Assembly (NCBI GenBank): GCA_965178125.1
Contig: OZ237759.1
Coordinates: 620,001 to 684,000, forward strand
Length of the DNA stretch: 64,000 nt
Reading direction: 5' to 3'
Source: Bilabrum cf. latius
Taxonomy: Eukaryota
The position numbers and the translations under genes were made by a program. This document shows positions 6,394 through 45,083 of the stretch, one piece after another (position 1 is the stretch's first letter; every line of letters begins with the position of its first letter). The notes beneath the pieces were generated by a model that ran no database searches, was not told the origin of the DNA, and saw nothing but the letters and a program-made list of their open reading frames with translations.

Positions 6394-6443
<50 letters not shown>

Positions 6444-10768: not shown

Positions 10769-11246
10769 GGCTTAAGCGATAGTGTCTGCGTGATTGTGCG
10801 AGAATCCAACGTGGTAGGATCGCTGTGGCTGCCATAAACTCAAAGTGGCAGGACTCCAACCAAATCATCCCGACAGGCACGTCCATACATAAAGAATCAT
10901 GCGATTGGAATGAGAAGGCTAGTTTACTTTCAATCAGGGCACGATAATTCACGGAATCCTAGAAACTTCTTGACTACACCGGTAGCATAGCACGCATACA
11001 CGCGAGGCCCTGATCAATGCGCCAGGAAAAGCTGCATTTCACTTACTCAGATACGCGTGCAATATAAATGGCTGCCTTTTGTGGCAACTACAACGAACGA
11101 AAGGCAGGCTTGTGTGCCTGGCTATTCCTGGCCAAGTCTATCGGCGCCGCGCATCTGGTTCCGTTCCACGAACGTGGGCCACGTTACATGGCCAGCCCAA
11201 GCAAATCTGTTCATGGGTTTCAAGTTAAACGTACCAGAGACGGGCA

Positions 11247-12975
<1,729 letters not shown>

Positions 12976-13253
12976 GGTGGACTTTTGCTCAGCGACGGAT
13001 CCTAATGACGTCGCCCAGGCAAGTGCAACTCCGCGGAACCGGAAACGACGATATTGCGCGGCGCCGCCCGATCAGCCCGATGAAGCGCAACGAACGTGTT
13101 CAAGAATTCTACCAATCCATTCCCCCTTCTGTAGCTCTCGAGTGACCACAAAGCGACATGCCAGGTAAATCTACAACTATGGAACATAGGGAAAGTGCGG
13201 AATCTAGAAGATAGGCTTAGAATCGAGACAAGAGAGCCAGGCGTAAAGCTGGC

Positions 13254-15043
13254 ATGATGGACGAACTTACCGGCTTCTTCAGGAAAACCTTAACGGGAGA
13301 TGACCATGCATCGGTCCGCGATTTCGTTCGCAAAGCATTTCGCAAGCGCCTAGTGGGCGACGAGGGCCGCTCGATTCGTGGCACAATGTGGAACACGTTC
13401 CAAAGGTGAGCTTCTTGGCTGCAGATTGCACTACCAGTTGACAAATAAGCGTGCAGATCAAAGCTTCCGATGCATTAATATGCATTGACCGATCTCTTCG
13501 TCTTACACGTGTGTGAAATCTTGATGTTGGATCTATCAAGTCTGCCAATAGTCTGGCAAGTCCATAGTTCTACCAAGCTCCAATGTATCGCAGGGAAGAC
13601 GTAGTTCTCTTGCGTGACAAAATATCCTTCTTCCTCGGGGTGGTCAACTTGCTGGTTGCAGAGCTGGTGCTCGTTCAGTTTCCCGACTACTTCCCGTGGC
13701 TATTCTCGTTCTGGTTTCCGACGCTCATGGCTCTGCGCCTGTACTACTACTCCGAGGCCCACTACGAATTCTTCCTGATCGATTACTGCTACTTTGTGAA
13801 CTTTATTGGCCTGGTGCACGTCTGGATCGTGCCCGAATCGCCCTTCGTGTTCGGAATGTTCTATGCTGCCGCAACCGGTCCCGTGTGCGTGGCCATCCTG
13901 GCGTGGAGAAACGCCCTAGTGTTTCATTCGCTGGACAAGCTGACCACCCTCTTCATCCACTCCTTCCCAGCCATGCTCGCCTTCTCCCAGCGGTGGCTCG
14001 CCAACACGACCCACTCGAGGATTTGCAGGGATGGAGAGGCCGAGTACAGGCCGGGAGACGGCATGCTTTGGGGGACCGTGTACTTGTTCCCTGGGGAACA
14101 GCATGTGCTCGGCGGCGAGGCGGGCGAGATGGAGACGTGCGCGCCCCCGCACTCCGCCATGGCCCTGATGATTTCCGGTCTGGCCTATTACGCCTTTTGG
14201 CAGGTGGTCTACCTCTTCATCACCGAGGTCGTCTTCTCCACGTACCTCAACCAGCACCCTGAAGAGCTCACCTCGATGCGGTACTTCATCGAGAGGGGCC
14301 AGAAGACGGCGCTGTACCGCCTCGTGACGAGTGCGATGGCCTCCATGGGGTGCATGAAGCGCGGGGAACAACTCAAGCTGGGCGAGGCCAGGACACTCGT
14401 CACATTCGTTCTGTCGCAGCTGCTGTACACGATCATCACCATGCTGCCCCCGCTCCTTTTCCAGGGCAACATATGGCTCTCGAGCCTCTGGCTGCTGGCC
14501 ATCGGCCTCAACGCCGTCTGGAACGGGTCCACCTACTACATCCAGATCTTCAGCAGGCGATACGCCGAAAATTTCAGCGAGATGTTTGTCAAGCAGGGCA
14601 AGGGCAGGAGGGATCGGATCGTGGAGGAGGCGGCGGCGCAAGGGTCCAAAACCGAAGGTATAGACAAGGGCAAGGGCAAGGGCAAGGAGAAGCCGAAGAG
14701 GGAGGCCGACGCTGAGGGTTCCTCGGTGGACGGCTCCAGTGTGACGAGTGCGGGAGACCGGGACGGTGCCTCGACGATCTCACACTCGTCATCCTCCGCA
14801 GCGGGCGCCAGGGAACAACGGGATGGCGGGGGAGACGACTCCTTGTCCGGGGCACGAAGCGAGGTATCATCCGTGGGCAGCGGCTCGGCAGGCGCGAATG
14901 AGGAGGACGCCGCCGATCGCGCGTACAGGCGCGCATTCGTCATGGGGATGGCGGCTGCAGCTGTGATGCAGGAGAACTAGGGGGATGGGGGCGACGGGAC
15001 ACCGAGCCTCAGCGGGGCCTACAGTCCAGACGGAGCGAACTGA
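13254..15043 (+). CDS. GPC1: Glycerophosphocholine acyltransferase (Gpc1/DUF2838 family); exons 13254-13405 and 13594-15043
   Basis: DKISF, DYCYFVN, GP...WRNALVFHSLDKLTTLFIH and WNGSTYYIQIFSRRY match the Gpc1 family; phase-2 intron 13406-13593; reading through TAG 14978 gives TGA at 15041-15043. Confidence 0.85.
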
Positions 15044-15148
15044 TCTAGATCTAGATTAGTGTAGGGGTTGTGTGCCCGCGTTACTGACCAGGCCAAAGGC
15101 CAAATACGGCGATTTACATGCGAGTTGATACAAAAATGAGCCCACAAC

Positions 15149-16363
15149 TCATGTCACACGTCGCGATTTCTGTCTGCTGCTGCTTCTCGCCTTGGCACCT
15201 GCCATTGCACCCTCCTCGGAATCGGCCTTGCCTGCGGCTGCCCTGCCCCGTTTACTTCCGATGCTATGTCCATCTTTGCTATCATCTTCCGACTCAGGTG
15301 CCTGTTTTTCTTTGGCAGGCGCTCTTTTCCGGCTCTTGGATGATCCAGAACCATCGCCGCTCCCGCTTGGCTCGTGCTCGGTGATCGTCGATGAGCGAGC
15401 GCCGGAACTGCCTTTGGATGCATGCGTTGAACTACCGCGTGATGCCCCGGTCTCGGTCTCAATCCCGTGCTGGTCACAAACGGCAGCGGCCCACATGGCG
15501 TGCTGGAGCAACTGCTCGGTCCATGGCAGGGAGGCGAGCACTTTGCCTGGGTTACTGCTTCCGGAGCTTGTCGAGATCTTGGTGCCAATCGTCGCCGATG
15601 ATGATGACGCAGCCACCGAGGAGGATGGTGGTGCAGAAGATGAGGATGAAGATGAGGATGACCCTGCACCTGATCTGGGCCCCACCTCCTTCGGTTCACT
15701 GCCAGTCGCCGCCCCCGATCCACTCCCACTATCACTACCACTATTATCAAAGGCACGCTCCTCTTCATTCAACCGGCCGGCCAGCACCTGCAAGTCCCTA
15801 GCAAAATTCTCCAGCACAGGCATGGTGTACTGCCGGCAACCCCACGCCTCCAGAGCCTCGTCACACATGAACGGCACCCTGGGATCGTAGGCCGCCAGAA
15901 TGGCGCTCGCAGTTGCTGGACCTACCCCTTTCAGGCTGGTGACTGCGCCCACGGCCGAGCGTAGGCCGGCGGAAGACAATTTGTCCGGCTGCGTTCCGGC
16001 GCCCCTTAGCTTCTTAAGGATTGCAAAAGCCTTCATCGACGCCTTCTTAACGGCTTCGTCGTCTAATCTATCGACGTGCTGCTGCAGCCCCGGCCTAAAT
16101 TTCCCCTTGTTCAGCTTCCACGTCATCAACCGCGACAGCTCTGGCTGCGTCATGTACGGCTCCGGCTCCCTGGCGAGAATGTTGGCATGCAATTCAGTAA
16201 CGAACCACACATCGTCCCGCTTAAATCGTTTACCGCGGGGAGTAGTTTTCTTCTCTTGCACAGCGCCAAGTGCATCATTGTACTTTCGCAGTGCAGATCG
16301 CCACGCTGCTGCATCGCCTCCTTGTAGCATGCGTTTCACTACTCTTGAGCAGAAAGTGGGCAT
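15149..16363 (-). CDS. Amun-like protein with helix-hairpin-helix (DNA-glycosylase-like) motif
   Basis: ELSRLMTWKLNKGKFRP and LKGVGPATASAIL...PFMCDEA resemble the Amun family; start at ATG 16363 or 16330; TGA stop. Confidence 0.75.
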   Translation of the reverse strand: MPTFCSRVVKRMLQGGDAAAWRSALRKYNDALGAVQEKKTTPRGKRFKRDDVWFVTELHANILAREPEPYMTQPELSRLMTWKLNKGKFRPGLQQHVDRLDDEAVKKASMKAFAILKKLRGAGTQPDKLSSAGLRSAVGAVTSLKGVGPATASAILAAYDPRVPFMCDEALEAWGCRQYTMPVLENFARDLQVLAGRLNEEERAFDNSGSDSGSGSGAATGSEPKEVGPRSGAGSSSSSSSSSAPPSSSVAASSSSATIGTKISTSSGSSNPGKVLASLPWTEQLLQHAMWAAAVCDQHGIETETGASRGSSTHASKGSSGARSSTITEHEPSGSGDGSGSSKSRKRAPAKEKQAPESEDDSKDGHSIGSKRGRAAAGKADSEEGAMAGAKARSSSRQKSRRVT

Positions 16364-16491
16364 TGCTAGTGGGTAAAAGTATAATTTAAGCAAGAATTGT
16401 GGCAGGACTTTGCGATCCGGCTGCTCAGATGTGGCGAAGGCGGTCGATTTTCATTCAAATTTGCAGCCCACTGAAGTGCAACTGCAACAAA

Positions 16492-19400
16492 ATGCCTCGC
16501 GTTCGTTCGACACTCACGAGCCCTGACAGTCTTGAATGTGTGCACAAGTCCTCTCGTAGAAGAATTGAATTGCGGCGAAACTGGCGATGCCGAATGTCGA
16601 AGTCAGGCTAGGGCTCTAAACACACAGCCACTGAACCGTTGCTGGCAGGCTCGCTAGCATCAATACGAATCGGTCGAAAAAGAAGGCGCAGTGCACAAAC
16701 CGAATCAGTTTGGGGTGATATAGAATAGACTGACCGGGATCGAAGCAGGCAGACCCTGAGGGCTCGAGCACGCCAACTGATGCTCAGGCGACAAGAAGCC
16801 GCACTCAAGTCAGTCCCGGCGGTACCAGATACCAAACCGCAGAGCAAACCATAGAGACAAACCACGAAGTCCCAAGAGGCGTGGTGGTCCAGCGGCAAAC
16901 TCTTCGACATGTGGCCCAGGCAGGTGGCATCCTTTGAGGCGATCGATCGCGCCTGGCGACGGTGGGCGCGCAGCTGCTCCAACGAGCACACACGCAGGGT
17001 AAAGAGCAGCCAATCTGTTGGAGCTGACGACAATTTATCCGCCTAGTGCGCTTCCTCGAAGGCTGGAGGAGACCCGCGGCCCGTGAGCGAGCAGAGCAAC
17101 TGCTTCGCTCTCGCTCCGCCCCGGCTGCTCGTCGCTTCCTTCGAGACCTCAAGGAACGGCCGACGAAGGTTCGCTGCGTGCGGGCTGGACCGCTTGTGGA
17201 GGCGGGTGCTCCGGATCCCGCCCCGGGATCGGCACGTGTACGAGATCATCCGGGAGGGCTGCGCCTGCCACCTCTACTTCGACATCGAGTACAAAGTGGT
17301 CACAAATCCACGGGTGGATGGCGGGGCCGCCACTGCCCTTCTACTCAGGGAGGCGCGAAGGCTCCTCCCAATGGTATTCGGGGCCGATAAAGGCCGCTGT
17401 TCCCCGAAGCACGTGCTGGAGCTGGACTCGAGCAGGGCGGGGAAATTCTCAAGGCATGCGGTTGTGAGGCTGCCATCGGGCGCCATGTTTGCGACCAATT
17501 CGCACGTGGGAGAGTTCGTGCTGCTGCTGCTGCGCTGGCTGCAGGCTCGCCGTGATGCCGCCATACGGGAATGGTGCAGGCGACGCGCAGCAAATGAGCC
17601 CTAGTCTGTGCCTAGTGCTAGTACTGGTGCTGGTGCTGGTGCTGGTGCTGGTGCTGGTGCTGGTGCTGGTGCTGGTGCTGGTGCTGGTGCTGGTGCTGGT
17701 GCTGGTGCTGGTGTAGGCACGGGTACAGGGACCAATACTGGTCAAGATGCCAGTACCAGTGCCAGCAAGGCAGGAGATTTGACCAGAAATCAGGCTGCAG
17801 ATCATCCTAGAGAAGATGATCGGATCAGAGATCGGATCAAGGACCTAGAGCTGTGCTCCCTGTGGGTGGAGGAGGAAGAGGAGGAGGACGGTATTCGTGG
17901 TGCCGCCGCTGGGTACAATTCCGCTGGAAACGGGGCTGCTGCTGCTGACCAAGGTGCAGCACAGGGTACGGCGGAGGCAGTGGCAGATCGTTTGATCCGA
18001 TCGTTCGGGTGCCGCGCATTTCTAGCTGACCTCGCCGTGTACACGCGGAACCGGGCCATGCGCTTGGTGCTGTCCACAAAGTTCGGCAAGCGGGCGGTGC
18101 TTGCACCTGCCGGCACTAACCAGTTCGGCGTGCTAGCGGAAGCGGGCGCAGAGGGGGGGGCGGGGAAGGGTGGCGAGACCAAAGAAAGTAGTTCTTCTTC
18201 TTCTTCTTCTGTTGCTGCTGCTGCTGCTTGGGCCAGCGACTCATCATCTGCCGGGCCTCGTGCCTTGGACTAGGCCTAGCATGACCGGGAAGAAGAAGAC
18301 AGCGCACCATTGGCGACTCCACTGGTCCACACACCGAGCAAGGAGAGAGTGTAGTTACTACTCGCCGGAGAAGACCCAACTCTAGAAGCCGAGTCGATAC
18401 CTTGGGGCAGCGCAATCGGAGCAGGAGATTCTGCTGGAGATCGAGAGGGCCAAGCAGCAGGTGACGGCAGCACACATGGAAGTGTTGCTGGAGCGCTGCA
18501 TGACTTCAGTGCGGGCCGACTCTATATACTATCTGTTGGTATGTTACAGCGGGAAGTTAATCGTGGGCAGTCGCATCGAAGCGCGTTGAAGAGAGGAGGA
18601 AATGATGCAGTGGAGGATGCAGATTCGGTTGGCGGGATGTCTGTGGAGGAGCTGGAGGCCCTTGCAGATTTGGCTGCCGAGGCAGAGCAAGAGCTGCATG
18701 AGCAAGGCGTCGACAAGAAAGCGAGCGGTCGAGACAAAGGACGAGAGAATCAGCGCAGTTAGCTCGGTGGAGTGGAAGGTGGGGCCGCCGAAGAAGCTGG
18801 TGCCGAGGAGCTCAGCTCGGACATGGATGTGGACGAGCTCATGCGGCTTGCTGCTTCATTCGAGGAAGACCCTCCGGCAGGTGCTTCTCAGGAGCAGCAA
18901 CAGGAGGCCTGCACGCGTGCAAGCGCTTCGAGTGGAGCGAGCATCAGCGATGGTGCACCATGCCAAGCGCTAAGGAGAGAGACCAGGTAGGGCTCCAGCC
19001 AGGTGTACCCATCGACATAGGCGGGAATCGCTTCCAGTGGTGATCGTCGTAACGCGCCGTCACTGTCGTAGTAGGCAATTGATGCTCGTGATGGTACCAA
19101 TGACATTGTTGGTGGAAAGGCTGGTGAGGCAGGAAGCGCACTTGCAAATGCAGTTGCAGGTGCAGGTGTGGCACGATCTTTCGGCCTCGGACTGCTTGGG
19201 ATCAGACCCGTTCCAAGCCATTCAGGACGCGGTGGTCAACTCAACCATCAGATCAAACCACCTTCCATGGTACCAGCCACTTCCTTAGACCATCAAGCCC
19301 CAGACGCAGCTCGGTACCACCATGATGATTCAAAGGCACAAGACGACTCGCGTGCAGCCGGCATTGCTGCGGGCATCGACACGGACTCTGCCTCTGTGTG

Positions 19401-20814
19401 CTCGCAGTCGACCTCGGCAAGCATCTCCACGATGGGCAGTGCCACCCAGGGTACAACCCAGGGTACAACGAAACCATTCAGGCGGGTCATCCAGGCCGGG
19501 TCGCCAGAGTGGGAAGAGCAGGTGTTCAGGGCCTGCCTCGTGACAGACGCGCTGCCGCCTGTGCCCCTGGCCGGCTACCTCGCCGGGCGAGCCTTGAGGA
19601 TGCGAAGAGCTGCAGGCGGCTCTGATTCTGACTCCGAGTCGGATGCGGAGGGAACATCGCAGCGTGATGGGGGTTCGTCCATGCCCCCCGCATCCACATC
19701 TTCGGCCCAAGCTGCGGAGAGTGCTGACGCTTCCGACAAGCCCGACGCGGATGCAGACGCAGACGCACTGGTTAAACTGGTAGAATAGGCTGAGGCTGGG
19801 GTAGACCGTGCCGTGCCTCGGCAGCACCCGCTGACCCACCAACCGCTGCTGTACCTATGGCCACCAACGCATGGCACAGGGCCTAGGCCGGCACTGACCG
19901 ATTCTGAGAAGGGGTTACCAGATGCTGGCGCCACCAAGTCGCTGCCATGTGCAGCGCAATCAGGTGCAGCGCAATCAGATGCAGCGCACTTAGGCGCATC
20001 GGACGCATGTGAAAGCAGAGCTAAGTCTGGCTCCACTACTGCGCACACGAATGCAGCCGAACAGGATAAAGAACACCATGCTCAACGTTCCGTCAGCGGC
20101 CCGAGCATACAGGCTGGCTGTACCCACGCAGCAGGTAGCGATGCCAAGTACCCGAAGTGTCATATCCTCGCCAATCTGCTCGACCCTGCTAGAACCATGC
20201 CGGAATTTGGCCTTGGCTCCCACGCTGGTGCTGCAGGGCGTACGCAGACTGGGATCCTTCGCCGGGCCATGCATGGCGCTGATGGGAGCGGTCCTGCAGA
20301 CCCGTTGGAGCCTACCAATGGTGCCAGTATGGGCACCCAAGGTAGTCGTCACATCTCACACACTCGTCACACTGGTGGAACGCTCGAGGGATTCGGGGCC
20401 ACGTCACCATACCCTTAGCTGGACTCGTTCGTGGTACACGTCGCTGGCAGCAACGGGGGCCCTCGGGCGAGGATCCGGCAGTGGAGGGTTCTGCATGATG
20501 TTGTTCCCCAAGGAACAGGCTTATCTACATCATAGAGCGGCGTTGGCGAAGGCAGTGTGTCTGCGGGCGGGACACCGTTGGTTGTGCCACGAACCGTGCA
20601 GTACAGCATGGTTGGGAATCGTTTCTGTCGGCGGGTGGGGAGGTAGCACAAGAGCAACAACGTGTCGTATTCGGTTGATGTGGTGCATGGCACTGTGGTG
20701 CAGATGTGCACCGACGTAGATTGCCGCGGTTTCCGATCGGATCGCATTGCAATACCGTGGGAACTGGTGCCGAGCATAGGCGGCGGTGACGGTGCTTTAA
20801 ACATCGAGTCGTGA
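16492..20814 (+). CDS. PRIMPOL: DNA primase-polymerase PrimPol (AEP domain plus C-terminal Zn finger), ~1440 aa with TAG as sense
   Basis: RQ motif (WPRQ), HVYEII...LYFDIE (motif A DxE), KFSRH (motif B), DLAVYTRNR.MRL..STKFGK (motif C), SPYP*LD, Zn finger FCRRVGR*HKSNN...QMCTDVDC; one frame with 17 TAG and no TAA/TGA until TGA 20812. Confidence 0.92.
17624..17713 (+). repeat. (GCTGGT)n hexamer microsatellite encoding an Ala-Gly tract within PrimPol
   Basis: About 14-15 copies seen directly. Confidence 0.95.
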
Positions 20815-22211
20815 ACTAATGGCGTTTCGCTTGTGCTTGTGCTGATACAGAGGCCAGCATATGTCGTGCTTAGACAATGATCGCAGAGCTAGCATCGGAA
20901 ATGCATCCTATCCTACAAGGCAATCTCCAGCCCGCACCTTTGTCTCCATGCGATAGGCCTCGTGCTCGGGCTCGGAGAGGACATTGCTCCGCTCACCACA
21001 TCCGGATCCATGGTACGTGTACACAAAAGCGTTCTTAATGATGGCTAAGTGCCATACTAAGCTAGTACGTGGCTGTCCTACGCGACAAAGCTAGCAGCTC
21101 CGCGAAATCATCGCTTAGCTGATATCAGCCAGCATTCCTACTGAAACACAGTGTTGAGATAGTGCAGAGAGGGCCATCCTTCGAGGTCTTCGACCTCCTC
21201 CTCAGCCGAGGCACACGCCCCAGCATGCATCATCTCGGCTCGTGCAGGCCTCCAGGGGATGGCAAGACGCAGTGCACTGTGTAGGGCAGGCCCCAGGAGA
21301 TTGCATGCGGTACACCCCGGATACTGCAAATTCCCCCCTACTTTCCCATTGCAAGTTGACTGGCCTCATAGGCGTGTCGTCGCTACATGGCTTCCTGTCC
21401 CTGTTCCCCGCCCTGGGGTCCTTGTGCGCTGCTCCTTGCATCGCCACTTTGAACCTTGATCTGTCCTCTCAGCTTGCACGTACAAGTCCTGGCCGACCTG
21501 CCATGCGCCCCGTCTATCCACCCGCCTGCTGGCCTCATCTACGCGCTGCTGGCCATCCAATGCTGCGGCCCGCTGCCACTCGCGTCTGCCTTGTGCCTGG
21601 CACCTGGAGCCCCCTTCCTCCCGTTGGATTATCCCACTGACATCGCACTATCCTGGATCATCGCCTGTGCCGGTGCCCCCTGCTGGTCCTCTGCCTCGCC
21701 GGCGCCCCACCTGAACTTCCGGATCCTCTCTGCTCCCCGTCGTTTCAATCCTGATGTCCCAAGTACATATGCAGAACGGATGGAGGACGCCGTGTGGGGT
21801 AGGCCTCCAGGAGATGGAGGGACGCAGTTTACTGCCTAGGGCAGGCCTCCAAGAGCTGCACCAGACCAGCAGTACCGGGGATGGATCGGTCGGTCGGGGC
21901 GTCCTCTAACCCAATGGCCCAATTAAGACGGAAATGGGGAAATGGGTGCATCGGGCTGGTGAAGTCTGACACTCACAACTCATCACGACACCTCCTACCC
22001 GGCAGTTTGTGCCCGTCACTCGGCTAAATTGTATACTCCCGTGACATCCGGACCGTGACTTCCATGACAGCTTCTTTTACAGACTCATACTGCTCACAAC
22101 GCGAGATCTCGATATCAGAGACCTTATTGGCATTACCAACAGAGACACACCCAATCAATGATCCGATCCCGATGGAATCCTGGAAGAGGCTCAGTCGTGC
22201 AGGCGTGTTGC

Positions 22212-24995
22212 TTAGGTCTTAATTATGAAGGCCAGCAGGAGCGATGGAGGGGCGATGTCCACTTCTTCATCTTCCCCAACGTTGCGCTTTGGGTGCGTCA
22301 TGACACGTGTAGCGTCAGCCCAGGATGAAGATCTGCGGTACGCTGTCCCGCTGTCCAAGTATACACCACGTGCAATTGTGCCAGCCAACACTGGCATCCC
22401 TGCGTTTGGGAGAGTGACGCGACGATCACGAGACCCAACAATGAGACCCTCCTTCTGCCAGGCTTTTGCCGAGTCATATCCGCTACGCGAGCTGCCTACC
22501 TCTTCTTCAATCATCCCAACGTATAGCTGGTGCTCGTGGTATGGCGCGTCCCGCAGCATCAGCTTGCCTTCCATCTCCAGGCCAATCTGGTCAAAGAACC
22601 GGCCATCCACCTTGCCTCCGACTGCCTCCACCCCTGCTGGATACTTCCCACGCATGTCTGGCACCTTGAACTCGGTGGGAAGCATCCCTCCCCGGCTCCT
22701 GTTGGTGTACGTGTCGCCGATGACCGACCACAGAGTGGGATACCCGGCCTTGAATAGCACCCTCCCGTCACAGGGCAGCCATCCAATGGGCACCTTCGCT
22801 GGGTCACGCACGTCTGCAGAGTGCATTACAATGGTGCCTGCAGGGACTGAGCCACCGGAGGATACCCCGCTGGATCCACCGGAAGACGATGCCTGCACGG
22901 AGCCATCGTCCCCAACCATCCCCGTGCTGCTGCTGCTCGCGACACCTCCCACGGCCGACTGCACTACCAAAAGATACTCGGCACTGATGGCCCTCCCCAC
23001 GAAAAGCGCCCCCCCGCTCACGCCATCCGCCTGTGTCACTACCCGGCCATCGCTAGATCGAGCGTAGTAGTTCGCAGACGGCACCAGCGACCGGTAAGGG
23101 TGCCTTAGAGCCCCAGACAAGACCACGGACACAGCGCTCCCGCCATCCCGCAGCAGTGCACTACCTTCCAATTCATCCTCTGGATGCCTCGAGAACCGCG
23201 TGATGCCAACAGGCAGCGGGCCTTCCTTTAACAGACCCACTCGGGCCAGCGCAGACGGATCGGAAGAGCCTCGGTGTAGTAGCAGCACGGAATCAGCCCG
23301 TGCAGGTGTACCTGCCAGCCCCACTCCCACCGCAATTGTGCTCTTCCTTGAGTTGCCCAGGCTCTGAGGGCGACCCAGCGTGACCTGAAGACGGCCGTCC
23401 CCCGACGCCACTGCATCCCTCACCACGGCAGCTGCGCTCCCATCCCGATACACGATTGCGAATCGGCCTGCCTTGGCGCACGGTGAACTGAACCTGCCCA
23501 ATGGTGCATAGCCCAGCAAGCCCTTACCGCATGGAATCGTGCCCACGGACAGACGCAGGGCAGAAGGGGCACTGGACCCGGCGTCCATCAGAACGGGCGG
23601 CATCATTGAAGCTTGCGGAGACGATCCCATAGTGACGGCGATGCCCCTGACGAGTATCGCCTGCCCCTGGTCAAAGTCGCGATAGGCCATGATGATCTGG
23701 CCCTCTGATAGCAACCCCAGGGCCATGTGCTCGATCCTGCCGCTGCTCGACACTGGCCCGCTGGCAAGCGAGACAGGCCGGTTCCCTGCACCGCTGTCCA
23801 TGCCCATCAGGTGGTACCGTGTGTCTTTGGTTCCAGCTCGCTAGTACACGACAAGGAAAGCGCCTGCAGATGGAGCGATTGCGGACAGGTACTGCCCCGC
23901 CTGCAGTGGTTCAAGCACGGTGACACTAGAGGGGGAGAGAACCTCTGCCGTGTCTGGCTTAACGGAGGCCGTCAGTGCAACGACTGCGCCGTTTCTCCCA
24001 TCTTTGAGGGACACAACCAGCTGCACCTCATGAGCAGAGCCTGTTGCAGATGAGGGCCCTGATGAGCTCGGCTATCCCACAACCACGGCCGCCATCGCGC
24101 CATCTCGCATGCCATCCGTCCCCAGCCATGACGCGTCCATCCTTTCCCAGTCGGCACTTAGAGAGGCTGAGATGGCGGCTGATGACCGCGAGGCACGAAG
24201 GGTGGTGATAACTACATCACCCACGCTGTTATCGTCCCCAAGAGTAGAAGAGGCGCCCACGTACACGCACACTGCGGCGTTGGAGGCGAGCGGTGTGCAC
24301 GAGGGCGGGGCCGCTTGCTGTGCTGCTGCAGGTGAGCCGGACGGGGACAGCCCGGTGCTTGCTACTGTCAGCACCCCATGCCAGCCATTGGCAGTGGAGT
24401 TGTCCCGCTGTGCCCCCGCCCGCAGCAGCGTGGCACCAACGACCCCTGTGGAGGGATGCACCTCCAAGGCAAACACACCCTCACCCGCCCACAAGGGAGC
24501 CAGTGCCACGCGGTCCAAGGCGGCATTGGGCAACGCGTTGGCCGAGGCCTGGATGTCCATGCCAAAGCCAGCCGACACGTACCCATTCAGACCCGCGCTG
24601 ACTGCAACCATGGGCATAATGGCAGGCGCGGAGGTAAAGTTGGTCATCGGCCGGAGGGGCACGGTCAGCGATCCGGATAGCGACGAGGATGTGCCCATTG
24701 CCTCTATGTCTCCATCCACTCGCATAGACCCCGTGAATCCCACTGTTGCGCCCTAGAATGGCGTGGTTGGAGTATCAAGCCCTACATCCGCAAGGAAGGT
24801 GCTCCCGTCAGCTTGGGACAGATTGACAGACGTGAATACGCTAGTCTACAAAATGGGCTTTAGAGGGCATCTCTGATCCGCATGTACCCGGTATTCTAAT
24901 ATTTGAATTTGTGAACAAGCAACTGGGCCCAATGGGTGGACAATTGAGCAGGCATGCAAGACGTAAGTGGGGTGGCCATTAAAGGCCTTGGGCAT
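22212..24995 (-). CDS. Protein with phage tail-fibre-like segment and C-terminal phage tail collar domain; 5' end uncertain
   Basis: VPAGTIVM...PIGWLPCDG...YPTLWSVIGDTY...FKVPDMRG...PPSLLLAFIIKT is the tail-collar signature; ORFs 24743, 24026 and 23807 share one frame and join through TAG (24753, 24072, 23841); ends TAA 22212. Start is ATG 24995 or a spliced upstream exon. Confidence 0.75.
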
Positions 24996-25096
24996 CCTCT
25001 TCTCTCTCACCTCGGAGCCAGACCCCCACTCAATCGTGAAGTCAACCCTGGATCAGATCGAATCCAATTGATCTTCTGCGTGTCCCCCGCCTACCC

Positions 25097-28000
25097 TTAG
25101 CCGCGTTTTGGCATCGCCCCCCACATGCGCATTCCCTAGGTATCTTGTTCTGCCATTTCGGGCAGGCTGAGCTCGATTTGTCGAGCCATCAATGCCTGGG
25201 TCTGGACTGCATTCCCAGGCTACGAGGGTTGCTTCAGAGCAGCAGTTGGGCTCGCAAGAGGCCCCAATGTGCCACTAGGATTCACAGCGGAGCTTACTGG
25301 TGCCGTGTGGTCTGCCTGCTGCGTCCCGTAACCACGCTTCTCTTGCGTTGCCTGGGGTCTCGTTGGTTTAGATGAAGCGATTGCTTTAGCTCGCAAGCGT
25401 TTCCGTTCCTACTCCAGCCTCTTCCCAGTCTTGGCAGCAGCTGCTGCCCAACTTGACTTGCCCTTGCTAGTCGGGCCACTAGCCTGAGGCGGGCTGGCAG
25501 CAAGCATCTCCGAGGCAATGGTATCGCGCTTGGTCTACTTCTTCTGCGGCTCGTGCGTCCCGCTGCTCTGGCTAGCCAAAAGCCTACCCGCGTAATCAAG
25601 GCCCTACTTGTCTGATGCGCACGGCTTTGCAAGCTTGCCTTGCAGAGATTCAATCGTCGCTGCCCTCCTCAGGCTCCTGCCGGCCTGCATAGACCTCAGC
25701 CCACTGGCAGTGCAAGCAGCCGGCATGCTGACATTAGGCCGGCCTGGCTTGTTCCCTTGCGCATTGTTCCCCAGCAGAATGGTGCTACCAGCCTTGCCGA
25801 CGAGCCCTCCCATGCAGGCAGCATACGTCACATAGAAGGCCCAGTGCGGGTCCTTCAGCATGGCACGCGGGTCGCACACCATCGCCAGCCCGAACTTGGC
25901 CCTGGACACAGCGACGTTGGTGCGGCGTGGATCCACCAAGAACCCCAAACCGCCACGCGTGCCGCATCGAACCGTGGACAAGACCACCAGATCCGCCTCA
26001 GTGCCCTGCAAGCCGTCTGCCGTTCCGACCCGCACTGCCTTGGACGGCTTCTTGCCAAGCTTGTCCTGCAGCTGGTCCCTGATCTGGCGCACCTGAGCCT
26101 TGTAGGGACTCACAACAGTAACGGTGGGCTGCGGGTGCTGCTCTGACAACTCCGCTGCTGATGGTCGCGGCCCACTGCTGCCAGCACTGCCAGAGTGGAT
26201 ACCCCCTATAGAGAGAGATTCGACTAGGTCTGCCACGATCTCTGCCTCACGCCGATTGCTGGACGACACCGACGCGCCCTTAACTATACCGCCGTCCTGC
26301 ACACACACGACTAGCATGGGCAGCCTCTCTACTGCTACTGGACGCACGCGCGGATCATCGCTCCCTGTACCGCTCGACGGTCCGCCTGATGGGAGTGCGT
26401 CACCTGCCTGCGGCACTGCCTTCATTGAAGCACGGGCATTGCGCACAGCCTCCAACACAGCTATCCCGAGCTCTGGAGACATGGCGCACAGATGAAGAAC
26501 GAGGCGTGCGGCGGGGCCAAACGATTCCGGGTCCAGCTGAGCACCTGCGGACAGCAGCGATGGCAGCTCTGCAAGCTCAGCATCAGTCAGCGCCGGCACA
26601 CGTCCACTGAAGTGACATGCCTGGGTCGCAAGCATTTCCTGGATTACCATACAGCTCTTGGCCTGCCCCGGGTCGCGGCATGCCAGCGCACCAGTCCGCA
26701 GTTTGGCGCCTTGTGCCCCGAATGCAGACCCGACGAACCACGCAGACCGGACGGATCCTCCGTAGTCGCAATAGCTCCACGCCAACAGGGCAGGTACGCA
26801 GCGAAACGACTGCGTCAGCTGTACAACATGACGAGGACCACTAAAGCCGCCATCGTCAGCACTGCCTTCGTCCGACAGCTCCGTGGATAGCACGGCAGCA
26901 TCATCCCAAGCAGCTTGCGCCCCGCCCGCGCTAGACTTCATGCGGCGCATCAGGTCCAATGTCCGTGCACTCGTGTCCGCACAGCCGACATCTAGACTCA
27001 CGGACGACTTAACCGCAGGCAAGATCTTCTCGATCGCGCCTCCTGCGATCGGCAAGGCTGACACTCCCACAAGTTGCTCGATGAGCGAGATCCCGCCCCC
27101 CGCTGCATTGCTGAACCCACACTTGAGAACAGGCCCCAGCTGTCTGGGATCTCCCGCCAGCAGCAGAGTGGGCAGCTGCAGGTCTACAGCGCTCCTACAC
27201 CTTTGCTTTACGGTTGCGACCAGGTAGGCCATCAACAAGATGGGCACCAGCTGCGCCTGCCGCAACTGACTCGCTTCATCGACGACGATGTAGTCGAAAT
27301 CCAAGCCCTCGCACGCCTTTGCGTCTGATTTCGATGCTGCGTGAAGTGCTCGGAACAGCCACTTGCTGGCGGTGTCCACAGTCGCAGCTACCAGCCTAGC
27401 GCTGCCCATCTCCTCCGGATCGACCAAATCCGCCCTGCACACCTGCTACAGAACAGCGGCTTGGTTGCCCCCCCCCTGCTGAGCAGCAGCCTAGGGGGAG
27501 CGGGACCCAGCCACGGCCCTGTAGACCAATCCCTTGATGCCTTCATCTCGCAGCAGGCCAGCCTTGCTCAACCTCGTGATTGTCTTGGTGAGCATCTGCT
27601 CCACGGCGAAGTTGGTCTGCCCAAGTATCAGCACGCGCGGCTTGTCGGGACTCGCCGCGAGGTGCGCCAGCAGTGCGGACACAGTGGTAGTCTTGCCAGT
27701 CCCCGGGGGTCCAAACAGCACCGATACCGTGGGCCGCTGCAGCGTCATTCCAACTAGGGCCAGCTGCTCCTGGTTGAGTCCTTGAAGGGCACTTGACGTG
27801 CCATCTCTGTCGCACTGTGCCTTAGCGAAAGCAGCCAGATCGGTGACGCTGTTGCCGACTGAAGCATCGCTGGCTGCATCATGCAGCTCAGTCGAAACTA
27901 GTGGCACCGATTCTGGTATTGACAGAGCTGCTTGCAGTGCCGCTGCTGCAACGGACTAGGACGCCGATGCTACTGGCAGTGCCTGACTTTCCTCCACCTC

Positions 28001-29959
28001 CTTCTCGTTGTGCACCGAATTCAAACCACGGGTGGATGGTGTTGCCTGACTGCAAAAGGGTTTCGCTTGGGGAGCGAACACCTCTTGCAGTGCAGGCAGC
28101 ACCATCCTGACCCTGGTCCTTAGACGATGCTCGGATCCGGATTCCGGATTGCCCATGTCCATGCCTCCATTTGGCCAGTACAGCCTTTCAAACGCTGACT
28201 CTGCGAATCTCTCGTCTGGCACTGAGACACCACGGGCTGAGCCTGCGGCGTCACTAGTGCGATCCCCGGCGTGGCTTTCGCGCCGATCACGGGCGGAGTC
28301 GGACTCTGATTCTGAAGAAGCCGCTAGGATCAACCGCATTGCATCCCGACGGGCTTGGTGCACCTCCCGAACCTGGGTCTACGTAATGGAAGCAAAAATC
28401 GTAACCCCGGTACGTCTGCACTGCTCCAGCTTGGCTTTGAACCGGTCCTGGTCTTTGTTGGGGCGCTTGAACCCGACGAGAACTGTCCCTATTCGACCTC
28501 CTCCTGGTGCTGCCAATGCTGAAGCCTTACGGGTCACCATATCGAACTTGGCCAGAGTCTAGGGCGTTCCCTCTGCCACTTCTTCGTCCTCCGCATCGAA
28601 AAAGTACATTTCAACGAGAAGGTGCACCTCCTTCTTGTTGCTGGCTTCGTCCCACCAGGCCGGCAGGGTCTTCATCAGAACTTGACCCAGGCGAAGCTCG
28701 ACCTTTTTGTTGCCTGCTCCTTGATGCTACTTGCCGCCGAATTTGCTCCGTGCAGCCGATGCGCCCGCTCCGGCATGTGCCCGTGTAGCTGGGGGCATCA
28801 TTATCGACCTTTTCGTGGTCGCACCAGCACCTGCTGCATCGCTGCCGTGCGTTGACTGAGGCGACACGTAGAAGCCGAGCACTTCTGCTCCATGCATTGC
28901 AGATTGCGTGTACTTTCGGTACTCCGTCGCGTACTCAATATCTTCGACCAAGGACTGCACCCGGGTCACGTGCAAGAGGTCTCGTCCCGGCCCTTTGAAC
29001 GCGCCCTCCTCCAGCAAGGCTTCAATCGCCAGCGGTTGGATCGCATGGTCTCCCCCCTTGCTGCCTCGAAGCTGGTCCTCCTCGATCGGATCCAAGGCGA
29101 GAAGGCCATCGTGTGGGATGGAGTCTCCTCTACGCTGCATCTTATTCACCTCCATTCGACGACGATTCAGCTCCTTGCTGCTGAGCTCCCTGAAGCACTG
29201 CATGAACTTGGCGCCCTCCCGTGGTGCGGGGACGAGACCGGCCGGCGCCTGAAGCAGAGCCGCAGCGTGCGCGATCGTCAGTGTTTTTTCCTTTAGACCC
29301 TTCGACGGCTTGAAAGAAAAGACACCCACAGCCGCAGCAGTCGCTGCGGCTTCTGCGCCGTCCTCGCCCTCCTTGTCCTTGTTATTCTGCCCCGCCAGAA
29401 TCTCGACAGCCTCCTCCAGGCATCGCACCTTCTTACCCTCATCCTCGCTGAGCAGCTCAAGGCAAACCTCGCCAAGGCAGATCCAGCGCGACGTTGAACT
29501 TGCTTGCCCCTAAATACTCCACCGATACGTGGTCACTGGCGGCATGGGAGCACCAGTTGGAGCATCGCGAAGGATATCCTGCTCTCTGATTGCCACCAAG
29601 CAAGTGAAGCTCTCCACAGCACAGCAGGTCTCCTTTATGTCTTGAATAATAATCCGTACCTGCTCGCGATCCAGATCATCAGCCATGTCCGGGGCCTGCT
29701 GCGGACGCACGGCGCTTACGTACACCTGTGGACGCGCCTTGCCTCGCTTTCCCCCCCTTCCCTTTCGCGAGCGTGCGTCAGCACACGCAGCCAAAGCAAC
29801 ATCAATATCATTGGAAATCCAATGATACTACGCTACTCGCCACTGGGAGCGGCCTGACTCCTAAATGCCAAGCACTTCGCATTGCGAACGGTCTGGACGT
29901 TCTAACTGGTTCAGGGCCTTTCGTACCGTCTTAGTGACCTTAGCCGGCGCAGTCGGCAT
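25097..29959 (-). CDS. Superfamily 1 helicase, Upf1/DNA2/NAM7-like (~1620 aa with TAG as sense)
   Basis: LNQEQ, Walker A GPPGTGKT, Walker B DEASQ, GDPRQL, SPYKAQ, TADGLQGTEAD, RRTNVAVSRAK; five track ORFs lie in one frame separated only by TAG, two of them (27491, 27446) between Walker A and B; ATG 29959, TAA 25097. Confidence 0.88.
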
Positions 29960-35107: not shown

Positions 35108-35184
35108 CGGTTTGCATTAAATGAAGAAGAGGAAATAAACGGCATTTTGCGGCAATGCGACTTCAGGGCGAGCATTTCGCATCA

Positions 35185-37026
35185 ATGCGCGCAGTATTTG
35201 GAATACTTTCTCTCGTTTCAATACATCATGCGTATGGCGGCATCATGGATGGCGCGTAGCTTTCCCTACAGTGGTGTGCAGCAACAGATCCCAACCAAAT
35301 GTTCGCCCTTGACGAGTCTAGTTCGTAGATACGCCATGAGCCGTCAGGCTTGTGCGTTTCGGCCCCGTATGGCTCTCCCGGTCATGTAACTCTTGAGCTG
35401 GAATAGTGTGATGCTAGCGATCCGGCGCAGACGTGGACGTATAATGCGAGCACAAGCGTGATTACGGGAGTGCCTCCTTCATCTTCGGGTGGCTGCTTGG
35501 CATGGAACACCTAGGGTGGTCCTGGAATTGAAGGAGTAAACAGTACTGTTGGACTCTGGACCTGCTCCTAGACTGGATTCAATTCCTACTTTGCCGCCGG
35601 TTATCCGTACAGCAACCACCTAGGAGCCAACTATACGACACCGAACAATGAGACGTTTAGCGGCCTGTGCGTGACAGCAACGCCTCTTCCTCCGTTACCA
35701 CTACCGACAATTGAGCAGGTCAAGTGGCAGGACGACTACATCGCGTGCTTCGTCCACTTCAACATGGGAACCGCTGCCGGCACGCAGGGCTGCAACTGCG
35801 CCGATGCTCCCCCCTCCATCGAGACCTGGGCCCCGGGCCACGTCAACACTGACGAGTGGATCGACACCGGCATTGCGATGGGTTGCAGCCGCTTCATCTA
35901 TACGGCCAAGCACTCCTGCGGCTTCTTGACCTGGGACTCGCAGGTCCCCGCCAGCACGTACAACTACTCTGTCGGTCACAACCCCAACCCCTAGGGGCAG
36001 CAAGATGTCGTGGCATCTTTCGTGAAGAGCGCGAGATCGAAAGGGGTGGGCGTGGGATTCTACTACTCTGTGGTCAGCAACAGCCTGCTGAACGTCTGCC
36101 GCGGAGTGGTGGGTCCAAGCCCCAAGCCAGGGCAGAGGCCAGTCACCCAGGAGCAGTACAACCAGATCGTGTTTAGCCACCTTCGGGAGCTGTGGGGGAA
36201 CTACGGTCCGCTGGACGAGATTTGGTTCGATGGTGGATACCCTGCGAGCATGAAGTCAGGCCTGCAGCAGCTCTTCAAGGAGCTCCAGCCGCGCGTGGTG
36301 GCCTTTGGTGCTGTGGACCTCATGCCCTCCCCTGTCCGGTGGGTGGGCACAGAGTCGGGATACGCGCCGTACCCCCAGTGGAGCGCGGGCACTCCCAGCG
36401 GGCAAGGCAGCCCCGAGGGCGCGCTGTGGCTCCCGGCCGAGACCGACTTCACGCTGCAGAACTATGACCAGTGGTTTTATAATCAGGGCGCCGGGGTTCG
36501 ATCCCCGCAGGAGCTCCGCAGCATGGTCGAGACGTCGGCGGGGCACAACACCGCGCTCATCATCGACATCGCGCCCATGCCCAACGGGTCTGTGCCGGTG
36601 GCACAGCAGCAGGCTGCCAAGGGCCTGGGCCAGTACCTGAGGGCATGCTACGGGCACGCTGCTGGTGTGACGAGTGCAAACGGGGAGCGCACGGTGACTC
36701 TCGATCTGCCCGGGTCATCCGGTGCGGGCATCGACCGGGTCATGGTGCGCGAGAACGTCACGATGGGTCAGCTGATCCGATCTTTCGAGCTGGTCGGGGT
36801 GACGAGCGGCGCCGCGCACGTATCCCTGTTCAACGGAACCTCGGTCGGCCAGCGGTACATCTCGGTCCTCCCGCAGCCCATGGACCTGGCTCAGGTGGTC
36901 ATGCGTGTGACGAGTGTGGATGGCCGCGCCCCACCGGGTGCCCCGTTCGTGCAGGAGCTGTCTGCGTTTGCGTGCGGTCAGGCGGCCAGTGAGCACGACG
37001 AAGAGATGGGGGGCAGCCTAGGCTGA
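35185..37026 (+). CDS. Secreted alpha-L-fucosidase (GH29) with N-terminal ricin-B-type lectin repeats (613 aa)
   Basis: Signal peptide MRAVFGILSLVSIHHAYG; ricin-B motifs (S*IRHEPSGLCV, CDASDPAQTW); GH29 motifs FVHFNM, AKHSCGF, GFYYS, EIWFDG, RWVGTESG; six in-frame TAG (35257, 35326, 35404, 35512, 35569, 35992); TGA stop. Confidence 0.88.
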
Positions 37027-37340: not shown

Positions 37341-40300
37341 ATGGCATGGACTACTAGTTCGAACCTTGGCGCCCACAGCACCAGCGATCGCCGGTCACGT
37401 TCAGGCTGCTCTGTGCCTCATGGTAGCGGTCTGGCACGTAATTCGCGCATAAGTACTCTTACTACAGTCTTCTTGGGTGTAGTATTTCTGGCGCATCGGC
37501 CGGCGGGGCAATCATGTGACTACGATTACGTTCTCAGTAGCAGCGGTGCCAGCGGCGGCTTCGTTCGGCTAACAGACGGAGCAAAGTTTAGCAGCTTGCC
37601 TAAGCACAACGGCAGGCTACCACACTTAAGTGTTCTCCCAAGGGATGCGTCCATTGTGTCGCCGAGTCTGGCAGCAGGTGCAGCTGGGCCGATTGGCGTT
37701 CGCTTGTCGGCAGGGCCTTCGCACGCCGCCTCCCTCATGATCGCCAAAAAGCCCCGGATGACAATCGTTGTCGGCAGAGGGAGCTCTTTAAGTGAGCTTA
37801 GTTCCTTTGGTCCATCCAGAATTCCGTTTAGTCTTCCATGATGTTCACCTATCGGACCTTCTCTTCTTCACCCACATCATGCTCGCAGGGATCCGATCCC
37901 GTCAGAAGTATTCAGGGAGCCCTTCAACGGCAGACACACAGCCCAGTATTTACAACAAGCAGATGTCCTGCAGACTTCGACCGCCTAGGGCTCCAAGTAC
38001 GGCTCCCGTGTTTTCGGGCACCACAACGGATCGGGCTCTGCTCGCGATCGCACACGACACGCTGCGTCTCGAAGGCCCACCTCCCAGCGCCCCCATCGAT
38101 GCTATTGTTCCTGTTGCTGGATCTGATCCGGCTGTGGCCACCATGGGTGCGTTGCAACTTCCCGAGATTGCTGTGTTTGAATGGGTGCGAGACACTGGCC
38201 TTGCCATCCCGCTCGATGAGGGTGCCGGAGCTGTCGAGGCGTACATTTGCGCGACCGGCGGAACCGTTCTGTCCGTTGCAGGGAATAGCACTACTGATGC
38301 AGGGAATAGCACGGCGTCTGCTTTGATTTCAACCTCAGGCCAGACCGCTGCTGCGCCATTTGTGTCACGGAACGATTCGCTCCGTGCAGCCGCCCGAATG
38401 GCCCTCGACCGCTTTCCGGCGTGGACTGGCGGTCCCTCGATAGGTAGCGTCGCTCAGTAGCAGGGGTACTACGAAACAAACGTTACTGCGCTTGTGGCAG
38501 CCGCCGTGAAGGCAGGTGGATCGGAAAGCGGCGCGGGCAGGGGTTGCTTCGTGGTGGTGCGGGGACTTCCTGGCGCTACCGACCTGGTTGCGCAGATGCG
38601 GGTGGTTGGAACCGCATCCGGGGTCGGGGAATGGTCAGGAAGACCAGAGCCGGCTGCGACCATGACTGGCGTGCCGCAGGTGGTGCTGAAGCCCCCCATC
38701 GCAGAGAGCAGCCTGCAGCGGATCCTGGGATACACTGGCCTGATTCTCCAGTGGCTGGCACCCCTCGACTCGGGGAGTGCAATCGTCGGATACGACCTGT
38801 AGGAAGAAGCCAGACAGGTGCAAGGTCCGAGCCCTGACTTTGGTGGAGCCTCGGGGCGACGACTCGGTGGTGTGACTTCCGGTGGAGGTGACGCGGCGTA
38901 GTATGATGGCGGCAGTGGCAATAGCAATGGCGGGAAACTATGGAGTGGTGTGACCGCTGTTTCGGATCTTCGTGCAAGTCACACGTCGTTTCGAACGTGG
39001 CGCGCGAATATCGTGGGCTCTGTCAGTGCCGGCATCACTCTCAGTGAAGAGGTGCCGGTGGAAATGCTTCCAGGCAGGTTTCTAAGCTCCACCGGTGGAT
39101 TAGCAACAGGAATCGGATCGTTGCAGGACCTCGAGGACCAGGTGCCCGGGCCTTTGGCCCTTGAAATCATCCGGGGGCTCCGGCGGGAGAACGAGTATCG
39201 ATTCCGGGTTCGTGCGGTGAACCAGTTCGGTGCCGGTGACTGGAGTCCCATGTCAGACTGGTACTCTGTGAGCGGCACGATCCCGGACGGCCCGACCCTT
39301 GCCCTTGAACAGGTCGGCAGCGCAGCAGAAATCGGCGAAGCAGCAGTGGGCGCGGGCGCACATGAAGCTGTTGCCACCGATTGGGTTTCGAAAGCCGTGC
39401 TGGATGGCCCTGATGCCGCACTGGTCGCATGGAAAGACGCTTTTGATGGCGGGGCAGACATCACAGGCTACGTGGTGTAGCTGACTTTGCAGGAAGTAGC
39501 GGACGCTCCGCTCGACTTTGATGCAGTGCGGCTGGTAAACGTAGCGGGTGAATCAAATCAATCCAACAGTCAAGTTGGATACTTGGTACCAGCAGGTCCA
39601 GGAGTCGATTTGCCTCCGTGCGAGTCTCCTGTTGTTGGCACTAGTGGCAATTCGAGCGTCACCGGCGCTACTGACGGCGGGGGCATAGCATGCAACGGCA
39701 CCGTGGGAAGCAACACGACCAAAGCCACCATCGGTGGCCTTCGGTCCGGTAGCGTGTACTTTGTACGCGTAGCTGCGTTGAATGCGAGGGGTAAAGGCGC
39801 GTGGAGTTCCGACCTGTAGATTCGCACCCCTGCTGGGGTGCCTTGCCCACCCGCGGCGGTCGTCTTTTCCAACAACCGAACGTCGCTGCAGGACGGTAGT
39901 GGCCGCACCCGCAGCTCTGTGAACCTTCGATTTTTGCCCTCGAAATGCACGGGAGGAAGGGACTAGTCGATACGAAGATACGACCTTTCCGTTCTTAGGC
40001 AGATTGGGAGTGCCCCGGCGTCCGTCGAGGCGATTGCCGTAGGTCGCGTGTACCCCGGAGTCGATTTCGCCATTCCGCAGTCGGCAGTTGCACCGGGATT
40101 CAGCGCGAAGCTGCGTCTGACGGCAGAGAACACAGCCCGACTGCTGTCTGTGCCAGTGGACACCGTGGTCGTGGCACCAACCGACGTGACCTTGCCACCT
40201 GTGGCAGCTGCATCTATTGAGGATGAATCGACTCTTCCAGTCGAATGGGACGAACTTCGCGCAGCAGGTCGCCTACAGACTGCAGAATTCGCCGGCGGTC

Positions 40301-45035: not shown

Positions 45036-45083
<48 letters not shown>

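Follow-up and report, generated by a model that had tools for sequence, protein, structure and literature searches.

Evidence that UAG very probably encodes glutamine, with UAA and UGA kept as stops, in the nuclear genome of Bilabrum cf. latius

Here we report that the nuclear genome of Bilabrum cf. latius very probably uses UAG as a glutamine codon and keeps UAA and UGA as stops, a genome-wide code of the NCBI table-15 type. The analysis starts from a 64,000-nucleotide (nt) stretch of DNA (hereafter the window; assembly GCA_965178125.1, contig OZ237759.1 (C25), positions 620001 to 684000) and extends to the 48.6-Mb nuclear genome assembly of 111 contigs. A first-pass annotation of the window had proposed that UAA and UAG, long thought to be coupled, are uncoupled here and that UGA is the dominant terminator; it named neither the amino acid nor the lineage, which are probably glutamine and a bicosoecid related to Cafeteria. 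The code type is known, whereas the lineage, the dominance of UGA and the ancestry of the decoding tRNA appear to be new.

The window is gene-dense, with a GC content of about 59%. When TAG is read as sense, the bases of the window that lie in open reading frames (ORFs) of at least 400 amino acids (aa) rise from 17,661 under the standard code to 50,514, compared with 17,682 when TAA is read as sense. For ORFs of at least 500 aa in 400 kb from 20 other contigs, the values are 88,111 (standard code), 308,229 (TAG as sense) and 88,675 (TAA as sense). The frames restored by TAG hold eukaryotic Pfam domains (SF1 helicase, fucosidase, fn3, PrimPol-type zinc finger, Collar and uL2), and 85 of 102 sampled genes contain an internal UAG and would be truncated in an annotation that did not use table 15.

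Conserved proteins point to glutamine as the amino acid. We aligned eight intron-free dynein heavy chains (36,996 codons, 107 of them TAG), excluding a split dynein; nine of the 19 dynein matches were fetched. The residues opposite TAG in the alignment include Q (17.7%), E (10.8%) and L (5.9%), a distribution that best fits the profile of CAG, which has Q opposite it at 20.7%, and then that of CAA. The invariant switch-II glutamine of the DTAGQ motif is encoded by TAG in 8 of the 30 Ras-family loci that were fetched from 65 Pfam matches. In the gene for the release factor eRF1, the codon at the position of human Q44, a glutamine in 88 of 93 homologues, is TAG. Furthermore, a metagenomic relative with a 92% identical eRF1 has TAG where this genome has CAG. 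PRP8, which has four TAGs and none at a conserved glutamine, was a poor test of the code and was dropped.

The TAGs are also present in probable transcripts. Three runs from two studies (X1–X3), available as contigs, are taken as spliced RNA because their contigs skip GT..AG and CT..AC introns. They span the helicase gene described below, with no other letter in the gene or at its TAGs, and a fourth run (X4) agrees with the assembly. UAG is therefore not visibly edited, although contigs drop rare variants and do not show poly(A) sites, starts or expression levels. RNA editing of TAG to CAG, or assembly errors, could in principle account for the TAGs, and the single base that separates the two codons is the sole point for editing; partial editing is possible in such contigs. 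However, a cognate tRNA-CUA is present, and the metagenomic relative carries an in-frame TAG at another site, and we give this explanation next to no credence.

A context-dependent code of the Condylostoma or Blastocrithidia kind, in which UAG would mean glutamine internally and act as a terminator close to the poly(A) tail, makes a different prediction for gene ends. In 10 of 90 sampled genes, including the window helicase, a TAG does lie no more than about 15 codons from the apparent stop, and poly(A)-anchored ends are not readable from contigs. By contrast, TAG is neither depleted nor in excess near 3′ ends, where its share of glutamine codons stays flat (7–11.5% at every distance from the stop), and the tails that follow the last TAG have the score of coding sequence, as do those that follow the last CAA (0.137 versus 0.115 per codon). 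No TAG ends any of 20 genes with a prenylation motif or any of the eight dyneins, and the helicase contigs extend 170–330 nt beyond the stop. The recoded codon was thus found neither to end genes nor to be depleted before the true stop, and we consider a context-dependent code highly improbable.

The uncoupling of UAA from UAG was borne out genome-wide by homologous C termini, dyneins, prenylation ends and the coding score. In the window, both TAA stops of the first-pass annotation are in place, at the ends of two genes on the reverse strand:

22212–22214, reverse strand: TAA stop of a tail-collar-domain gene, at the homologous C terminus FIIKT; the corresponding C terminus of the homologue P0380 is YLIKT
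22212–24995, reverse strand: collar-domain coding sequence (CDS) from the first ATG, 927 aa, with Pfam Collar near the C terminus and in-frame TAGs at 24848, 24755, 24074 and 23843
25097–25099, reverse strand: TAA stop of an SF1 helicase gene, past which the spliced-run contigs continue
25097–29959, reverse strand: SF1 (AAA_11/AAA_12) helicase CDS from the first ATG, 1,620 aa, with 14 in-frame TAGs and one further upstream at 29980
24766–25096, reverse strand: probable 3′ untranslated region (UTR) of the helicase transcript; contigs end at 24766 (X1), 24903 (X2) and 24925 (X3)

The collar gene ends PPSLLLAFIIKT-TAA, with the stop directly after ...LLAFIIKT, and P0380 (54% identical, and the only one of the three closest matches to reach the C terminus) ends PPSLVVGYLIKT at the same place. 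FIIKT had been described as the canonical collar end; the homologue agrees with this, but a similar motif ends only 13 of 150 collar-domain matches. Because the helicase C terminus is not conserved, support for the helicase TAA is indirect, and no poly(A) site is visible in the probable 3′ UTR in the X1–X3 contigs. The helicase and collar transcripts overlap, because the helicase contigs pass the first ATG of the collar gene (24995), which lies downstream on the same strand. The collar gene is unusual in its own right, as a phage-tail-collar domain terminates a 927-aa eukaryotic protein with close homologues at 54–72% identity; a phage tblastn search with its C terminus as query gave weak matches only.

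Stop usage was counted in the window and in a wider sample. A coding model retains 17 window ORFs, of which 14 end in TGA and three in TAA; the TGA ORF at 2–730 and the TAA ORF at 44995–45588 are probable antisense or low-complexity shadows, and two further TGA-ending frames (59709–63560 and 7708–8370) fall under the model threshold. The resulting tally of about 15–16 TGA and two TAA closely matches the 16 and two counted in the first pass. In 629,512 sampled bases, with the low-GC stretch L095/L096 left out of the host statistics, 116 closed gene-like ORFs comprise 96 that end in TGA and 20 that end in TAA (63 and 12 in the randomly placed stretches alone), confirming UGA as the dominant terminator.

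Both codons end proteins at fixed positions. Six of the eight dyneins end in TGA and two in TAA at the same conserved position, and 20 C termini with a cysteine prenylation motif are followed by TGA (16) or TAA (4), the TAA standing directly after a CC, CxC or CaaX motif in four Rab/Ras genes. The eRF1 gene itself ends in TAA, where its 92% identical metagenomic relative ends in TGA. Inside conserved domains the picture is reversed: by hand count, 65 Ras Pfam matches contain 48 TAG, one TAA and two TGA, and 148 kinase matches (from 116 of 413 candidates scored) contain 85 TAG, two TAA and three TGA. All three TAAs lie in introns, as does the one TGA of the five that was inspected. The earlier statement that no TAA lies inside the frames was partly true by construction, but it holds in these tallies and in two other non-circular tests, namely the dyneins, which contain no in-frame TAA, and the coding score, which is +1.9 following TAG (n = 536) and −4.8 following either TAA (n = 17) or TGA (n = 73).

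These results bear on the coupled alternative, in which UAA would also encode glutamine, would be rare owing to GC bias, and would be read through at the apparent TAA stops to the next TGA. That TGA follows the collar TAA by just 7 codons and the helicase TAA by 30. Against this, about 12 in-frame TAAs would be expected in the dyneins (p about 7e-6 for the zero seen), the coding score collapses equally after TAA and TGA, and the TAAs that follow prenylation motifs stand exactly where the proteins should end. The minority status of UAA has a simple counterpart in codon usage: TAA makes up 0.17 of the stops (20/116), compared with A-ending shares of 0.13–0.26 in CAR, GAR, AAR, AGR and TTR (p = 0.19). 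Because the TAA share matches those of the NNR pairs, the dominance of UGA, which agrees with the preference of this 60% GC genome for codons ending in G, needs no special mechanism. No enrichment of tandem stops was seen after the stop (5 TAA, 8 TAG and 14 TGA per 540 in frame; 7, 13 and 25 per 1,080 off frame).

Endogenous virophage-like elements extend the comparison to AT-rich DNA of the same cell. An element of about 22 kb and 31% GC (C14:296,270–318,350) has terminal inverted repeats and virophage-type genes (MCP_V20_C at the cut-off, Chromo, Prim-Pol and weak AAA and peptidase matches), with an integrase core and a penton assigned solely on motifs and gene order. Reading TAG as sense raises its ORF cover from 5,586 to 16,060 of 20,000 bases. 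The AT-rich ORFs of a 50-kb C14 region, which include a few antisense shadows, contain 112 TAG, 178 CAA and 26 CAG codons and end in TAA 27 times and in TGA six times. From these codon and stop counts, TAA is the main stop, not a glutamine codon, in this DNA. The ATPase of the C14 element has 73 genome matches in many families, of which 65 have an in-frame TAG and three a TAA; the C14 family, with 15 near-identical ATPase copies, uses the host code with TAA as its main stop. The three TAA-containing matches would favour coupled UAR codons, but the only full-length one has its TAA at a site where a sister copy is not glutamine, and the other two are partial matches. With in-frame UAA as glutamine (table 6) not seen in genes this rich in CAA, and no UUA-anticodon tRNA in incomplete scans, we judge the coupled code extremely improbable.

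A second virophage family has four TAG-free ATPase copies. Its copy at C40:322,500–331,200, interrupted by GC-rich DNA near 331 kb, has no TAG against 80 glutamine codons (p about 1e-13 relative to the C14 region), and six of its seven genes end in TAA. Either code would serve to read this family, which may have arrived recently. Two regions were read in detail and stop tallies cover the remaining ATPase families; most of the elements use the host code. A capsid-protein scan of IMG/VR found no relative.

The decoding machinery is present in the assembly. A single tRNA-CUA gene (C23:907607–907679, reverse strand) scores 69.8 bits and folds into a perfect cloverleaf (−25.6 kcal/mol, z −2.7). Because a CUA anticodon decodes UAG but does not decode UAA, the latter can remain a stop (PMC5304391, PMC11687900). 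The first-pass annotation had expected a CUA-anticodon tRNA only: the CUA gene was found, and a UUA-anticodon tRNA was not found by Rfam and two pattern scans of the genome, an incomplete census that would overlook tRNA genes with introns. Of 42 known tRNAs, the first pattern type picks up 31; the looser one gave 123 matches (187 in the control), of which the 100 listed were judged by eye. Four tRNA-like matches with 4/5 stem pairs were rejected as tRNAs.

The tRNA-CUA has a composite character. Its acceptor and anticodon stems are identical at 20 of 24 nt to the organism's tRNA-Tyr(GUA) and at 12 of 24 to its tRNA-Gln(CUG), whereas 222 cross-isotype pairs reach a maximum of 17 of 24 (mean 8.8). 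The C1:G72 pair and the 5-nt variable loop are also Tyr-like, and the D-stem and G73 are those of tRNA-Gln(UUG). We infer that the tRNA arose from tRNA-Tyr with a switch of identity; a closer match may exist among the isotypes that were not recovered, such as Trp. A separate stem likeness, between the Met/iMet tRNAs and the Pro(UGG) tRNA (16–17 of 24 nt), is a possible second identity recruitment.

Such a tRNA raises the possibility that tyrosyl-tRNA synthetase (TyrRS) charges it and that UAG is ambiguous or partly tyrosine. Eukaryotic Tyr determinants are C1–G72 and A73, and also U35 and A36 (PMC9976931), and tRNA-CUA has all but A73; the near-identity of its stems to tRNA-Tyr points the same way, and one PRP8 TAG stands opposite His. 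The discriminator of tRNA-CUA, however, is G73 and not the A73 needed by TyrRS. Tyr stands opposite TAG in the dyneins at 0.5%, which is not above CAG (1.0%) and compares with 42% for TAC, and TAG is tolerated at the catalytic Ras glutamine in the eight loci described above. We consider tyrosine at UAG very unlikely. Escherichia coli glutaminyl-tRNA synthetase (GlnRS) charges some amber suppressors (PMC9976931).

A single eRF1 gene was found (C35, L051:3552–5424; 4 exons, 438 aa); a second eRF1_1 match, on C20, was rejected as eRF1 and is pelota. The residues G31, T32, S33, E55, N61, K63, S64, R65, S70, Y125, C127 and F131 are intact, with the GTS and YxCxxxF motifs kept. S33 and S70 are needed for UGA, and L69A slightly raises UAG read-through (PMC4381064); the retention of both serines fits the retained UGA. 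Around this pocket, the protein carries rare changes (human numbering): among up to 92 homologues, G29A, N30D, I35V, E107Q and F117P are shared by none, S60V by one, N129S by two and L69Q by four. The first intron junction yields A-D where a conserved G-N precedes GTS. L69Q was rejected as diagnostic, since wheat has it, as do 6 of 94 homologues. Euplotes recodes UGA, and its eRF1b is UGA-blind. TAVNIKS, which replaces TASNIKS here through S60V, is also found in Euplotes eRF1b, together with S70A (PMC4695839), and was rejected as a UAG-specific signature. From its sequence, an eRF1 blind to UAG is plausible. Codons 48 and 73, in the N domain, are UAG, one of them the last codon of exon 2; two of the three glutamine codons among the first 75 are thus UAG, against a 5′ background of 0.176, an enrichment that is not significant (p = 0.08), and autoregulation of UAG termination through these codons is only a weak lead.

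One GlnRS was found (L164, on C33), and it is ordinary against human GlnRS, apart from an anticodon-domain segment that reads FFGL opposite human FKRL. The Arg lost from this segment may be the one that contacts G36, an assignment that we presume from E. coli GlnRS. FFGL-like motifs may be common in the GlnRS of standard-code plants and protists.

From sequence comparison, the organism, a bacteria-eating flagellate, is probably a bicosoecid stramenopile related to Cafeteria. Its nearest named eRF1 is that of Cafeteria roenbergensis (68%), and a tree joins it to the Cafeteria clade at 93/85; its nearest named nad7 is that of Cafileria marina (71%), and relatives with 88–92% eRF1 identity are present in metagenomes. 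The mitochondrial contig (C111; 38.4 kb, 24% GC) carries a tRNA with a UCA anticodon and is read with code 4, both of which are reported for the bicosoecids Cafeteria and Cafileria (PMC6723347, PMC6972860). In its available part, the paper on the genome of C. roenbergensis speaks of a non-standard code for the mitochondrion only (PMC6972860), which suggests that the code change in the Bilabrum lineage was independent. On C111, ARAGORN found only 10 tRNA genes, which implies extensive import of tRNAs, and each of the 30 listed ORFs ends in TAA; TAG seems unused as a mitochondrial stop. On C12, the rDNA of the host forms a tandem array of 18S genes of 1700 nt. Another 18S gene that is quite unlike these (1802 nt, one match; C95:6099–7900), on a 17.9-kb contig, is probably a contaminant and to our eye looks dinoflagellate-like.

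Several observations weigh against UAG as glutamine in a bicosoecid, or against parts of that reading. Conserved dynein columns with TAG are Q in only 10 of 24 cases (199 of 399 for CAG), and the PRP8 TAGs in conserved columns lie opposite P (40/40) and H (39/40) and not Q. The tRNA census is incomplete, with 63 of 780 candidates scored by Rfam and none of the nuclear tRNAs for Trp, His, Asp or Leu among those recovered; the tRNA-CUA is closer to tRNA-Tyr than to either tRNA-Gln, and its C1:G72 is a eukaryotic Tyr determinant (PMC9976931). None of the eRF1 changes is diagnostic of UAG blindness; at position 69, 88 of 94 homologues have L and six have Q. For the lineage, the evidence is a single eRF1 tree together with nearest named matches at about 70% identity.

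We propose that a table-15-type code had an independent origin in a lineage of bicosoecids related to Cafeteria. The tRNA-CUA would be charged with glutamine by the one GlnRS found, and eRF1 would have lost or weakened its recognition of UAG via G29A, N30D, I35V, S60V, L69Q, E107Q, F117P and N129S around an intact GTS/NIKS/YxCxxxF pocket. The ratio of about 5:1 of UGA over UAA would reflect the genome's preference for G over A and not a weakness of UAA. More tentatively, and as a possibility to which we do not commit, these features may form a single history, the first nuclear code change in stramenopiles, which would have taken a new route via a Tyr-derived suppressor tRNA, with the code now sorting the resident virophages. 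A duplicate of tRNA-Tyr(GUA) would have become an amber suppressor (G34C) and then acquired Gln identity (A73G and a Gln-type D-stem), keeping the Tyr acceptor and anticodon stems, so that UAG would have passed through a Tyr or ambiguous stage to glutamine in a GC-rich cell with UGA as its main stop. The virophages would then comprise adopted families, in which TAG is about one third of the glutamine codons, and a TAG-free family readable in hosts of either code; the two N-domain UAGs of eRF1 may add feedback on UAG termination, a weak element of this scheme.

The other features of the window are as follows:

16390–20814, forward strand: PrimPol-like gene with a Herpes_UL52 zinc finger at the C terminus; 17 in-frame TAGs, TGA stop
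35125–37026, forward strand: alpha-L-fucosidase with a beta-trefoil lectin domain; 6 in-frame TAGs, TGA stop
37792–44988, forward strand: fn3/cysteine-rich membrane protein frame of 2,398 codons; 26 in-frame TAGs, TGA stop
1040–2032, reverse strand: gene for ribosomal protein uL2 (RPL8), probably with introns, ending QLKKEE-TGA
13403–13592, forward strand: GT..AG intron, skipped in X1–X3 and present in X4

At 52282–57828 lies a long, Gln-rich tandem repeat protein of the AQQDAARQAK type with 13 TAGs, none of which was found at a Gln position of the matched repeat units; because no TAG falls inside the repeats, it gives no internal evidence on the code. A short dispersed, SINE- or MITE-like repeat at 21370–21830 has depth far above its flanks in all four runs.

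No stramenopile nuclear reassignment was found in the literature searched, to which subscription papers and supplements did not belong, and an earlier description is possible. The genome would add stramenopiles as a lineage with a variant nuclear code. It holds the decoding tRNA, eRF1 and GlnRS together in one contiguous assembly, unlike the known UAG = Gln cases in the papers compared, and the discrimination of UAG from UAA by eRF1 is therefore directly testable. Code-adopting virophage families beside a TAG-free one offer a test of how far a variant code limits the host range of eukaryotic viruses.

A comparison with known systems places the code with that of Iotanema, or table 15, by UAG at conserved glutamine positions, UAA and UGA as stops and a tRNA with a CUA anticodon. 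The 'Blepharisma' label of that NCBI table is an error (PMC5304391). Iotanema spirale (Panek et al. 2017, PMC5304391), a fornicate of an unrelated lineage, has an identical codon table, no UAG-terminated genes in the available part of that report, and stray in-frame UAA and UGA that are intronic. Its stops are 104 UAA and 15 UGA, in contrast to the 96 UGA and 20 UAA here; its eRF1 carries T32G, whereas T32 is intact here; and its tRNA-CUA was merely predicted, with an origin from tRNA-Gln(CUG), whereas that of Bilabrum was found and is Tyr-like, which challenges a mutated tRNA-Gln(CUG) as the default origin (PMC5304391).

Two phyllopharyngean ciliates, Hartmannula sinica and Trochilia petrani, and Protocruzia tuzeti share the table with UAG as glutamine (McGowan et al. 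2024, PMC11687900). About 80% of genes in those ciliates have internal UAG, with no 3′ depletion of UAG described in the available part of that study, similar to the 85 of 102 and the flat profile here. UGA ends 8–13% of genes in H. sinica and T. petrani (1.7–13.1% in the phyllopharyngeans studied), and a suppressor tRNA was not detected there, according to the same part of the study, whereas tRNA-CUA was found here. UAA is argued to be kept as the preferred stop (PMC11687900); the exceptions compared do keep UAA as the dominant stop, the usual reason given for its retention, yet in Bilabrum it is a minority stop and is kept all the same. Other UAG-only reassignments, with UAA and UGA as stops as here, are the rhizarian exLh and Tara ciliate metagenome-assembled genomes (MAGs), with UAG as Leu, and Scotinosphaera (Ser; cited in PMC11687900). 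The amino acid differs from that here; a CUA tRNA was found in two MAGs, and the tRNAs derive from the cognate isotype (Leu from Leu); the eRF1 of exLh has L69A, and that of Bilabrum L69Q. CrAss-like phages with TAG as glutamine (PMC9523058) also use table 15, but are bacteriophages with bacterial release factors.

Cafeteria has endogenous mavirus-like elements. The elements described here share with known endogenous elements that they are integrated capsid-encoding DNA viruses forming AT-rich islands in a GC-rich host. Endogenous viruses that use the host code are known from Streblomastix strix, where capsid-encoding DNA viruses follow the host UAR = Gln code (Bellas et al. 2023, PMC10120064). 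Bilabrum differs in that UAG alone is recoded, in that the capsid is of the virophage type (MCP_V20_C), and in that code-adopting and TAG-free families reside in one genome.

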